NCBI GenBank assembly: GCA_026387175.1
Contig: JAPLME010000008.1
Span: 77,091-141,090 of the forward strand
DNA length: 64,000 nucleotides
Direction of reading: 5' to 3'
Source: Candidatus Omnitrophota bacterium
GTDB lineage: Bacteria; Omnitrophota; Gorgyraeia; 2-01-FULL-45-10
The notes below the pieces were generated by a model. It was not told the origin of the DNA, did no database searches, and saw nothing but the letters and a program-made list of their open reading frames with translations. Shown here in pieces: positions 58,618 to 60,992 of this stretch (position 1 is its first letter; each line of letters starts with the position of its first letter). The translations under genes and the position numbers were made by a program.

Positions 58618-58665
58618 TTGAACCAGCTTCAAGAAGGTAGATGGGCGTATATGAAGCTGGTTCAA
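58618..58665. other. stable hairpin immediately after glgB, at the boundary with the AT-rich gene
   Basis: A 13-bp stem, ttgaaccagcttc (58618-58630) with gaagctggttcaa (58653-58665), and a 22-nt loop. No T-run follows. Confidence 0.4.
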
Positions 58666-58796
58666 AAGCCCCAAAAATTAGGCAATAAAAAAGTTAAATA
58701 TTGTCTCTTGATTTTTCTGAAAGTCATGATATGCTTGATATGTCACTCTTTATTAACCTAAAAATGGAAATTCAAGTAACAAAAAGGAGGTGTGCC

Positions 58797-60992
58797 ATGA
58801 ACTTCTTAAAAAATTTAAAGATATACAGAGTAATAGCATCCATCCTTACAGTCGTGTTTTTTCTCTCCACTATCAACATAGATTTTGGCTATGGTTTACA
58901 AGCACCGCTTGGGACAACCGTCCCTGCTATGCAGCTAGACTATCAGGTACACTATAACATTGAACTCCTACGTGGAATCATAGATTTGCTCGAACGTAAC
59001 CAATTTGGCGAAGCAACAACCATTCAGGAGATACGAAGTAGAGAAGTATTAATAGTCAAAAAACTGACGGGGTTAGAATTTGAAGTTACTGATGACGAAG
59101 TGATTGTCAAAGCTGCGGGAGGCAATATAATACTTAGATATTATAATCCAATCCAAGCACAGGCTTATCTTAACGACACTGTTAACGCATCACACTTGGG
59201 GCTTGATGCGAGATTGAATAATAACTTGGCACGGCAAGTTTTATATTCCAAAAGTCTTAACCAGCGCCTCTTGAATGAAGCAAAAGCCTTGCCGCCGGCA
59301 ATAGAGCAAGAGAGCATAACACCGCCTGCTATAAACGCAGAAGAAAAGACCCCTGTTAATGAGGTAACTCCGAAGAGTGAGGAGATAGGTAACGCATCGC
59401 TGGAAATGCTTATTAGGTTATGCGGTATAAGTTTTGCGACGGCATTATATGGAATGGGGTATACTATTACAGGCCCTGTTGTGGGGGTGATAATTGTTGG
59501 TGGACTTGCCCTGCATAAAAAAATATCGTTTAATGAAATAGCTGCTTTGTTGGCGTTAGTATATACTTTATTTTTGCCCAGTGGGGTAACCAACGCGTCT
59601 TTAAATAAAATTGCAACACAGAGACATGTTCCTATGGTTTATAGTGTGGACAATGGGGGCACCCACTCTATAAAGACTGTCGACTCAGCGGGTAGGATAG
59701 ATTCGGCTTTACCCCAAGTTCCAGAGGGGTGGAAAGCCACATCAAACCCTTACTATGCATACCGCGTAACGTCATCGACCCAAGGATATTGGACTACACA
59801 TACTATTGAAGTTATGAACCTTAGTACCCAAGAGACGAAGGTTATAGATCATGCCTATTCCCCAGAGGATAGTTTTGAGGGGACACCAGACATATCTCCT
59901 GGAGATGATCCATATATTGTTTATGGGAGGTGGGATCACGTATCCAGTGGTAATAATCATCGCCATACACTCATTGTAAACATTGCCGATACCACCAAAC
60001 AGTTTTGGCTTGATATTTATTTCCGATCCGTGAAATTTATACCAAACACAAATTTTGCTGTTATTACTGATATAAAAGGCACCAAATACAAGGTAGACGT
60101 TACCACAGGCAAGATACTTCCAATTTTGCCACCTGCTGTCATACAGTTGTTGCTTTCAAAAGGAGAGCCGCTGCCTGAATATGATAATTCGAGAAAATAC
60201 GCAAGCTTGCCGGTTGGTAAAAAACTTTCTATTGATGATGTTCTTGCGCTATCCATGGCCACGACGCTTATTCCAAAAGGAACATCAGCAATAAATATTG
60301 GCGGTACAATTAGCGCTTACTTAACTGAAAACATAGCGCTTCTAAAAGACATGGCCAAGGATGATAATCCCATATTGATAAGGTTGCCCTTGGAGGTTTT
60401 AATCAAATCGGATGCTGAGTTGGTTTCAGCTTGGTTGAATAAGCTAAATAGCACACCCAATGTATATATTGAATTATATTCGGTTGAAAGCCCTGACATT
60501 ATTGCCAGTGAAGAATACTATTCGCGCCATGGCTTGTCAGGCGTATACAATAAAAGATTCCCCATTGACAGGACAAAACAAAATACCCTTACATTGTATG
60601 CTGTATCTGCCGATATAAAGAAAAGCGATCTTGCAACGGCGTTGCAGATCAGCACAAGCCTGAAGAGTTCAGTAGTAGTGCCTATAGGAATGCAGGACGA
60701 TGCTACAGGCTTGGTAAGGGGTACGTTATTTGGCTTCAGGCTAATATATATAGCAAGGCATAAAGATGACGTTGACTTTATAAAGAGTACCGTGTCCAAT
60801 TATAGGGATTTGATCGCTTCCTATGGCATAAACCCGCCCGATTTAAAAGCGGACAATATCCTGGAGTTGTTTGGGGCGAACATAGTGAAGATTGTCGCAG
60901 TATTGATGTCGATCATAAGGTCATTACCTATAAGGCCTGTACCTACGGAACAGATACGCGCGGTGAGAGACCATATATTGCAATCGGCATAA
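58797..60992 (+). CDS. AT-rich, foreign-looking gene for a 731-aa membrane-associated protein of unknown function
   Basis: A strong SD (aaaaggagg) sits 7 nt before the ATG at 58797, so the longer ORF call from 58701 is rejected. It has an N-terminal hydrophobic signal/anchor and an internal TM pair (~residues 230-290). Composition and codon usage (tta/aaa/caa-rich) differ from the neighbours. No recognisable motif. Confidence 0.6.
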   Translation: MNFLKNLKIYRVIASILTVVFFLSTINIDFGYGLQAPLGTTVPAMQLDYQVHYNIELLRGIIDLLERNQFGEATTIQEIRSREVLIVKKLTGLEFEVTDDEVIVKAAGGNIILRYYNPIQAQAYLNDTVNASHLGLDARLNNNLARQVLYSKSLNQRLLNEAKALPPAIEQESITPPAINAEEKTPVNEVTPKSEEIGNASLEMLIRLCGISFATALYGMGYTITGPVVGVIIVGGLALHKKISFNEIAALLALVYTLFLPSGVTNASLNKIATQRHVPMVYSVDNGGTHSIKTVDSAGRIDSALPQVPEGWKATSNPYYAYRVTSSTQGYWTTHTIEVMNLSTQETKVIDHAYSPEDSFEGTPDISPGDDPYIVYGRWDHVSSGNNHRHTLIVNIADTTKQFWLDIYFRSVKFIPNTNFAVITDIKGTKYKVDVTTGKILPILPPAVIQLLLSKGEPLPEYDNSRKYASLPVGKKLSIDDVLALSMATTLIPKGTSAINIGGTISAYLTENIALLKDMAKDDNPILIRLPLEVLIKSDAELVSAWLNKLNSTPNVYIELYSVESPDIIASEEYYSRHGLSGVYNKRFPIDRTKQNTLTLYAVSADIKKSDLATALQISTSLKSSVVVPIGMQDDATGLVRGTLFGFRLIYIARHKDDVDFIKSTVSNYRDLIASYGINPPDLKADNILELFGANIVKIVAVLMSIIRSLPIRPVPTEQIRAVRDHILQSA

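Follow-up and report, generated by a model that had tools for sequence, protein, structure and literature searches.

Introduction

Proteins in which a conserved trafficking part is combined with a changing payload are known from several bacterial systems. Cargo proteins of the type IX secretion system (T9SS), a Bacteroidota-type system, have a Sec signal, an arbitrary payload and a conserved C-terminal domain (CTD) of about 80-100 amino acids (aa), a beta-sandwich for which Pfam and NCBIfam models exist. Multifunctional-autoprocessing repeats-in-toxin (MARTX) proteins have glycine-rich repeat ends, are secreted by the type I route, carry no Sec signal and contain a cysteine protease domain that frees the effectors. 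In polymorphic toxins (Rhs, CdiA) it is the very C-terminal end that varies, and an immunity gene comes next to it downstream. Here we describe an AT-rich gene located downstream of glgB in a stretch of 64,000 nucleotides (nt) from a contig of a Candidatus Omnitrophota bacterium (JAPLME010000008.1); this whole stretch is called the window below. The gene encodes a 731-aa protein (the query), which belongs to a family with two conserved ends and exchanged middle sections.

The Omnitrophota are uncultured, ultra-small, apparently host-dependent bacteria. That their long proteins join export signals to cytoplasmic-type enzymes is a puzzle already acknowledged in passages of two preprints on this phylum, one by West-Roberts et al. 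of 2023 (10.1101/2023.11.21.568195) and one of 2026 on complete genomes (10.64898/2026.06.07.730766).

The gene and its protein family

The gene downstream of glgB is a real, intact gene. Its open reading frame (ORF) extends from 58701 to 60992 (763 aa) if an upstream TTG is included; the 731-aa product begins at the ATG at 58797, a start that is supported because homologs align from that methionine. A profile search found one copy of the gene in the window and no second one.

58784 to 58791, plus strand: Shine-Dalgarno sequence AAGGAGGT, 5 nt before the ATG at 58797 (sequence read directly)
58797 to 60992, plus strand: coding sequence of the 731-aa protein, deposited at NCBI as metagenome-assembled genome (MAG) hypothetical protein NTY76_04960 of a Candidatus Omnitrophica bacterium

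Searches of the protein against Pfam, NCBIfam and PADLOC (E ≤ 1) and against PHROGs gave no match, and for these four collections the preliminary description of this DNA, which saw no recognisable domains, was right. It was wrong for homology in general, and the protein is not the orphan it was taken for: an exhaustive phmmer search of 1.84 billion cluster representatives (the protein library is clustered at 50% identity) returned 195 proteins at E ≤ 1e-3, 125 of them at E ≤ 1e-10, and two conserved terminal domains emerged. A word-indexed search of 5.8 billion proteins recovered only the protein itself with the full-length query and two matches with a profile of the C-terminal domain (C-domain). 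Scans of metagenome contigs found no locus with the protein and one locus with a four-sequence C-domain alignment.

Nearly all relatives align with query residues ~500-730 up to about 5-12 residues from their own C-terminus, and the N-terminal ~160 residues of the query (9-166) match the relatives P0049, P0090, P0003 and P0004. Among the best 150 of the 195 relatives, profiles detected the C-domain in 145, the N-terminal domain (N-domain) in 67 and both in 65. The last number is a lower bound, because long members in which only the C-domain was detected likely hold a more divergent N-domain; most long proteins missed by the N-domain profile begin with a signal-peptide-like segment and an L-x-P-x-L motif.

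The N-domain comprises about 130 aa with an invariant-looking RY(F/Y)(D/N)P motif. The C-domain, about 230 aa at the extreme C-terminus, shows the motifs N..P..D..G..R..G and LP..P, with conserved residues N596, P629, D635, G638, R641, G646, D687, L703 and P711 in query numbering. The C-terminal residue is alanine in 136 of 144 members, 81 of which end in AA; the query ends in LQSA. A strongly hydrophobic window lies within the first 90 residues of 60 of the 65 members with both domains. Member N-termini have a basic n-region and a hydrophobic core of ~15 residues, and many have an AXA-type site, read as SWA↓QEE or, in the subgroup of the query, as FALA↓LQPEL.

The listed members span 145-4710 aa, the shortest being likely fragments, and all seven members with a named source come from Candidatus Omnitrophota. 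A relaxed Pfam scan of the members with both domains revealed no recurrent weak family, and neither terminal domain matched Pfam, NCBIfam or PDB in profile and fold searches run with the C-domain alone and with both domains together. Our confidence in the family membership and architecture of the query is high. As judged from sequence comparison, the family appears to be undescribed and has so far been seen only in Omnitrophota.

The closest relative of the query, P0002 (56% identity), is encoded by a complete stand-alone 232-aa C-domain gene (locus L088, 619-1317) without signal peptide or N-domain, located between a PilO-like gene and a methyltransferase gene on the opposite strand. It may be either a functional solo C-domain or a remnant. 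For P0012 the database call (495 aa) is too short: the stop-to-stop ORF at 8759-11485 of locus L087 encodes 909 aa including the N-domain, showing that start-codon miscalls hide full-length family members.

Layout of the 731-aa protein

The protein is built from the following parts:

58797 to 58895, plus strand: residues 1-33, predicted Sec-type signal peptide or signal anchor with a K/R-rich n-region and a hydrophobic core VIASILTVVFFLSTI
58896 to 59294, plus strand: residues ~34-166, family N-domain, alpha+beta, matching P0049 (E 1.3e-16) and P0090 (E 1.8e-13)
59295 to 59426, plus strand: residues 167-210, P/E/T-rich low-complexity linker, modelled as disordered with a predicted local distance difference test score (pLDDT) <50
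59427 to 59594, plus strand: residues 211-266, transmembrane (TM) hairpin of two hydrophobic helices (~215-265) with the short basic loop HKKIS between them
59637 to 60131, plus strand: residues ~281-445, beta-rich 'PEGW...SPGD' module resembling beta-propeller blades
60294 to 60989, plus strand: residues ~500-731, family C-terminal alpha/beta domain, matching P0002 (E 7e-72) and found in ~140 proteins, pLDDT 86-98

Hydrophobicity analysis places the N-terminal hydrophobic segment at residues ~9-31 and the helix pair at ~215-265, which agrees with the topology proposed in the preliminary description. The end of the signal segment (GYG↓LQAPL) aligns with the AXA↓L-x-P-x-L site of the family, and LRYYNP at residues 113-118 corresponds in register to the conserved (I/V/L)RY(F/Y)(D/N)P motif. 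The TM hairpin is limited to the subgroup closest to the query. The 'PEGW...SPGD' module (query ~300-445) is tandemly repeated in the Omnitrophota proteins P0033, P0081, P0143 and P0007. A helix at residues 689-707 was considered as a C-terminal TM anchor and rejected; it is amphipathic in homologs and packed inside the confident C-domain model.

Modelled alone, the C-domain adopts an alpha/beta fold with pLDDT 77 and a predicted template modelling score (pTM) of 0.78. In the full-length model, which was built from an alignment of exact full-length members, residues 510-720 of the C-domain have pLDDT 86-98, and residues 42-163 of the N-domain form an alpha+beta structure with means of 64-92 over 10-residue blocks, most of them 77-92. 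The middle (~281-441) is modelled as beta strands with pLDDT 66-78 over ~301-350 and ~411-440 and <50 over 353-406; linkers and membrane helices have low confidence. Foldseek related the middle module to the clathrin terminal domain, tricorn and WD40 propellers at E ~4e-4 and TM-scores of ~0.2. The likeness to propeller repeats (PD40/TolB-like, WD40/Kelch-like) concerns the middle only: the module is beta-rich, has an 'SPDG'-like motif and occurs in tandem in P0033 and P0081. It differs from these repeats in that no Pfam repeat model matches, and a single module of ~165 aa cannot close a propeller alone.

Exchanged middle sections

A Pfam scan found 81 families in the middles of 42 members. 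They include radical SAM, B12-binding, several methyltransferase families, HAD, cytidine and MafB19-like deaminases, PHP, GNAT, GHMP kinase, epimerase and EPSP synthase; other members carry PP2C or a Fis/PucR helix-turn-helix (HTH). Short members consist of the N-domain, one enzyme and the C-domain, as in P0098 with a GNAT and P0043 with a deaminase domain. The middle of the query contains the TM hairpin and one beta-propeller-like module and no enzyme.

Among 92 pairs of members that are at least 60% identical in both ends, the middles are <10% alignable in 90, a fraction that is inflated by the clustering of the library at 50% identity, although such pairs cannot be created by it. At least two members with different middles are present in one MAG (GCA_015233235.1). 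Taken together, these comparisons of sequence show that the middles are, to all appearances, freely exchanged between constant ends.

Comparison with described systems

Like T9SS cargo, the family combines a Sec signal with an arbitrary payload and closes with a conserved domain that recurs at the extreme C-terminus of many otherwise unrelated proteins of one phylum. It is unlike T9SS cargo in that its C-domain is an alpha/beta domain of ~230 aa and in that a second conserved domain lies at the N-terminus; no Por_Secre_tail or TIGR04183-type CTD was matched in Pfam or NCBIfam at E ≤ 1, and no T9SS genes were seen near any locus. With MARTX toxins it shares conserved ends, a modular, laterally exchanged middle and a length that varies with the number of payloads, but no sequence or fold similarity: RtxA/RTX glycine-rich repeats, a cysteine protease domain and a type I C-terminal signal were all missing from the Pfam families of the query and from the families reported for 57 scanned members (for 42 of them, the 25 most frequent of 81 families). 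Polymorphic toxins likewise combine a conserved trafficking part with a variable, laterally exchanged payload, and some of their payloads are deaminases. In the family, by contrast, conservation is highest at the C-terminus, the majority of payloads are of non-toxin kinds and no immunity-like neighbour was seen, the downstream genes being unrelated housekeeping or DUF genes; RHS or filamentous haemagglutinin repeats were not matched in the query. Since every testable defining feature of the three systems is missing, the resemblance is one of architecture and not of membership.

The giant proteins of the Omnitrophota come from the same phylum and, in the passages of the two papers that describe them (10.1101/2023.11.21.568195; 10.64898/2026.06.07.730766), also join a signal peptide or TM segments to methyltransferase, GNAT, HAD and radical SAM domains. 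They are described as >10,000 aa long, with SecA-like, dockerin-type or repeat architectures and linked type II secretion or Tad-like loci, whereas the listed family members have 145-4710 aa and no secretion genes are linked to them at the loci examined. The passages of these papers that keywords led to contain no description of the N- and C-terminal domains of the family.

Composition of the gene and comparison of the locus

The gene has a GC content of 0.415 against 0.485 for the window (z -3.7), and the 2.2-kb segment with the lowest GC of the 64 kb starts at 58601 (standard deviation 0.021 among segments of this size). At third codon positions the gene has a GC (GC3) of 0.394, compared with 0.578 in the reference genes (z -4.9); its synonymous-codon distance reaches 0.44, compared with 0.27 (z +3.5). 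The reference for these z-scores is the 40 other genes of the window with at least 250 codons, so that the deviation is measured against 64 kb and not against the whole genome. The AT shift is even over all four parts of the gene. The abrupt change in composition, the low GC and the odd codon usage noticed in the preliminary description are thus borne out by calculation; the statistics are not uniform.

To compare the locus, glgB was used as anchor. In GTDB species representatives none of 80 loci was syntenic, including one with a 78% identical GlgB (L001). Three related loci (L091, L092 and L093) were found in Omnitrophota MAGs with GlgB proteins 79-83% identical. All three keep the order of upstream genes as far as glgB. 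Colinearity of L093 with the window begins at 49061 and lasts to the glgB stop (49061-58610), the encoded proteins being 68-90% identical; L092 shares the block from HAD to GlgB. The nucleotide homology with L093 continues through GAGCATAA and, like that with L091, is lost within a few bases past the glgB TAA. In all three relatives glgB is followed by genes for YajQ and an FKBP isomerase, and none of the three has the family gene or the DUF1848 gene that follows it in the window; YajQ and FKBP genes are not found in the window up to 64000.

58614 to 64000, no strand: DNA non-syntenic with related Omnitrophota genomes, at least 5.4 kb, reaching at least to the window end
58618 to 58631 and 58652 to 58665, plus strand: perfect 14-bp inverted repeat with a 20-nt loop, 5 nt past the glgB stop

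The family gene forms the left edge of the non-syntenic segment and is the only strongly AT-shifted gene in it. As the non-syntenic DNA reaches the window end, the single-gene insertion between glgB and DUF1848 that had been proposed cannot be shown. The adjacency of glgB and DUF1848, put forward as a synteny check, was seen in none of the relatives found, in which the order is glgB-YajQ-FKBP. A conserved presence of the gene at this locus, which would have spoken for a resident gene, was not observed: it is absent in the three relatives.

The hairpin mentioned in the preliminary description is real, with arms of 14 bp and not 13. Its energy is about -26 kcal/mol, computed for an 80-nt segment containing it. 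It occurs once in the window and is therefore not a repeated element, an Rfam search of the flanks including it gave no match, and it was not called by terminator prediction; since it has no T-run, it is not a canonical intrinsic terminator. The hairpin is the first feature of the DNA without counterpart in the related genomes and is absent after glgB of L091-L093.

At nine family loci the GC of the gene minus that of its flanks is -7, -1, 0, +6, -4, +11, +3, -7 and -8 points, some of these values being based on flanks of just 1.5-2 kb. Offsets in both directions speak for transfer among Omnitrophota lineages rather than for an AT bias inherent in the family. Low GC as a trait of the family, as expected for a fast-evolving AT-biased class of genes, was rejected, other members being GC-richer than or equal to their hosts. 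Foreign composition, absence from the locus of the relatives and a GC content uncoupled from the host together support lateral acquisition of the gene, in which our confidence is fairly high as far as sequence comparison can tell. The proposed recent horizontal acquisition of an envelope or membrane protein is accordingly a reasonable reading of the composition break and the absence in three relatives. Measured against a classical island, the segment shows compositional deviation and absence from the locus of the relatives and lacks the hallmarks of mobility. According to a passage of one paper (10.64898/2026.06.07.730766), an Omnitrophota chromosome has a median of seven loci that are hypervariable or hold mobile cargo, which is a plausible background for the arrival of the gene.

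The colinear part of the window upstream of the gene (49061-58613) is a redox and oxidative-stress block conserved in Omnitrophota. It encodes pyruvate:ferredoxin oxidoreductase (POR) subunits, a flavin reductase-rubredoxin, a flavodiiron-like protein, a ferritin/rubrerythrin-like protein, desulfoferrodoxin, HAD, glutaredoxin, a thioredoxin-reductase-like protein, an Ogg glycosylase and GlgB.

Proposed role and rival explanations

On balance we lean towards the reading that the gene is an intact, laterally acquired member of the family that encodes an exported, membrane-tethered envelope protein with a conserved-end chassis; confidence in the functional part of this reading is low to moderate. 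The signal peptide would direct Sec export, the TM hairpin would tether the mature protein in the inner membrane, and the N-domain, the propeller-like module and the C-domain would all face outwards, to the periplasm or the surface. As a chassis common to the whole family, the conserved ends may serve targeting, anchoring or assembly, with the middle supplying specificity; here the propeller-like module would bind a ligand or partner. Export and membrane side are predicted from hydrophobicity, inspection of motifs and the positive-inside rule.

Several points weigh against this reading, among them the short flanks behind some GC offsets and the clustering bias of the pair analysis given above. 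The 64 kb contain no tRNA gene, no convincing flanking direct or inverted repeats or target-site duplication were found, and no recombinase, integrase or transposase domain was detected in the Pfam-scanned neighbours (DUF1848, the 123-aa and the 280-aa ORFs) or in the ORF at the window end, which was read by eye. The nine family contexts examined share no conserved neighbour and hold no secretion-system or immunity-like gene. The full-length model has a pTM of 0.43, and contacts between N- and C-domain are not readable from it. The chassis is an argument from architecture, neither terminal domain matching Pfam, NCBIfam or PDB. Finally, payloads of other members (radical SAM, S-adenosylmethionine (SAM) methyltransferases, GNAT, GHMP kinases, HTH) need cytoplasmic cofactors or DNA; they fit a periplasmic or surface site poorly and favour delivery into another cell or a cytoplasmic orientation.

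Delivery into another cell would make the conserved ends recognition or translocation handles of a dedicated secretion route by which host-dependent or predatory Omnitrophota bring enzyme payloads into a target, and the copy in the window would be no enzyme effector but an adhesin-like or receptor-binding variant or a component resident in the membrane. A target cell would offer SAM, acetyl-CoA, ATP and iron-sulphur cluster assembly, and the family joins signal peptides to payloads that need cytoplasmic cofactors and have effector-like activities (deaminases including MafB19-like ones, PP2C, metallophosphoesterase, GNAT, methyltransferase, CheB-like methylesterase, HTH). Payload swapping, at least two paralogs in one MAG and the GC mismatch that suggests lateral exchange point the same way, as does the inference, in parts of the literature, of a host-dependent or predatory life for Omnitrophota, with their long secreted proteins as possible effectors (PMC10066038; 10.1101/2023.11.21.568195; 10.64898/2026.06.07.730766). 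We nevertheless regard this account as somewhat unlikely: none of the nine loci has a linked secretion-system or immunity-like gene, payloads such as EPSP synthase, epimerase and radical SAM/B12 would be untypical of effectors, no structural likeness to any known secretion signal domain was found, and the TM hairpin of the window copy argues for retention in the membrane of the producer. The same payloads, being cytoplasmic-type enzymes and a DNA-binding HTH, would also suit proteins that face the cytoplasm, with an uncleaved N-terminal anchor, payload and C-domain inside, and assorted enzymes and regulators held at the inner membrane; the window copy would then serve as a scaffold or binding protein held at the membrane. 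A complete stand-alone C-domain gene lacking a signal peptide occurs in at least one case (P0002, L088), and a passage of one paper argues that nearly half of the long proteins in Omnitrophota are anchored in the inner membrane with their domains in the cytoplasm (10.64898/2026.06.07.730766). This orientation is improbable, since basic n-regions (positive-inside rule) and AXA-type motifs predict translocation after the first helix, most members lack a second TM segment that could return the chain inside, and the hairpin in the subgroup of the query brings the chain back to the side of the N-domain.

Vertical inheritance, with weak expression, amino-acid composition or fast evolution behind the low GC and odd codons and an unrelated rearrangement behind the break in synteny, would account for the missing integrase, transposase, tRNA and direct repeat. 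The DUF1848 gene and its 280-aa neighbour are also non-syntenic and somewhat atypical, so that the region is maybe rearrangement-prone; two family loci (L082 and L083) show no GC offset, and the closest genomes, just ~80% identical in GlgB, are too distant to date an insertion. A native gene is nonetheless very unlikely: its GC3 of 0.39 lies 4.9 standard deviations below 40 genes that include long, presumably weakly expressed ones, the deviation is uniform over the four parts of the gene, expression level cannot explain host offsets that range from +11 to -8 points, and homology with the relatives stops right at the glgB stop. Least probable of all is a phage-derived or anti-phage single-gene island of the receptor-like, toxin-like or abortive-infection kind that the preliminary description had suggested. 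A compositionally foreign single gene for a membrane protein would fit such an island, and the distant member P0003 lies beside a toxin-antitoxin/HEPN/Fic cluster. The suggestion found no support in PADLOC, PHROGs, a tblastn search of 50,697 phage and 72,556 plasmid records (no match) or IMG/VR (no locus), matches in BFVD were merely generic Kelch/WD40 propellers, and the eight other family loci lie among housekeeping genes.

The exported, membrane-tethered envelope protein thus remains the reading we favour. A further-reaching reading must be considered doubtful: the two unannotated terminal domains would form an undescribed, Omnitrophota-specific chassis for export, display or translocation, into which arbitrary enzyme or binding modules are recombined and which is exchanged between genomes. 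It would be a new cargo-delivery system of host-dependent nanobacteria, with the window gene as a freshly transferred binding-module cassette.

Neighbouring genes and other family loci

Downstream of the family gene lies a DUF1848 gene:

61165 to 62028, plus strand: DUF1848 gene, absent from the glgB locus of the relatives

Its GC of 0.487 is host-like; in synonymous-codon distance (0.419, z +3.0) only one other gene with at least 250 codons is more atypical. A TG-extended promoter-like site precedes it at 61130-61158. It is probably not in the same functional unit as the family gene and may be of separate foreign origin.

A 280-aa protein with a double zinc ribbon and a TM segment is encoded at 62384-63226 (plus strand; GC 0.432, mildly AT-shifted), and its gene shares 32 nt with the 123-aa ORF before it. 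In L092, glgB is followed by a 110-aa zinc-ribbon and TM ORF (4701-5033), with whose start the second zinc ribbon of the 280-aa protein (residues 84-110) has 63% identity; this likeness may be a remnant of the ancestral junction or may reflect a common motif. The ORF at 63250-64000 (plus strand), open at the window end, contains the motif DTGAS and looks by its sequence like an aspartic protease of the retropepsin type (clan AA), and a 184-aa minus-strand ORF at 63440-63994 is probably its antisense shadow.

Elsewhere in the window, an 1872-aa ORF (39121-44739, plus strand; GC3 0.489, z -2.4) encodes a starch-synthase/glycosyltransferase fused to alpha-amylase catalytic domains. It is another long multi-enzyme Omnitrophota protein and has neither the N- nor the C-domain of the family. 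Nearly all credible genes of the window (1-64000) are on the plus strand and the cumulative GC skew climbs steadily, placing the window within one replichore with strong gene-strand bias.

Family genes sit among housekeeping genes (SecDF-RecJ, rplM-rpsI, coaX) and once by a toxin-antitoxin cluster. In two different Omnitrophota genomes (L082 and L083/L084) SecDF-RecJ lies upstream of the family gene, immediately before it in L083 and at a distance of seven genes in L082. No other sign of a recurring neighbourhood was noticed, and this arrangement is absent from the window and the remaining loci. The 4710-aa member P0003 is located in a variable region rich in defence and toxin-antitoxin genes (L085, 8526-9085 and 23650-33605), flanked by a MazE-like antitoxin, a YhcG nuclease, two nucleotidyltransferase genes (one paired with HEPN), Fic and ParE/Phd. 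The middle of its gene has a GC of 0.495 against 0.43 and 0.41 in the ends and 0.426 in the flanks.

Meaning for Omnitrophota biology

The interesting part of this locus is the family it revealed rather than the island. With models for the two new domains, genome annotation would bring together a few hundred clusters of what are now called hypothetical proteins as one family. Its members are small to moderately large, tractable proteins that show the paradox of export signals joined to cytoplasmic enzymes in clean form, with one or a few swappable modules set between the two conserved domains. If the conserved ends are a chassis for targeting or delivery, the site of action of these enzymes would be directly testable with short constructs, and the ends would allow the proteins that any Omnitrophota genome exports or delivers to be listed from sequence.

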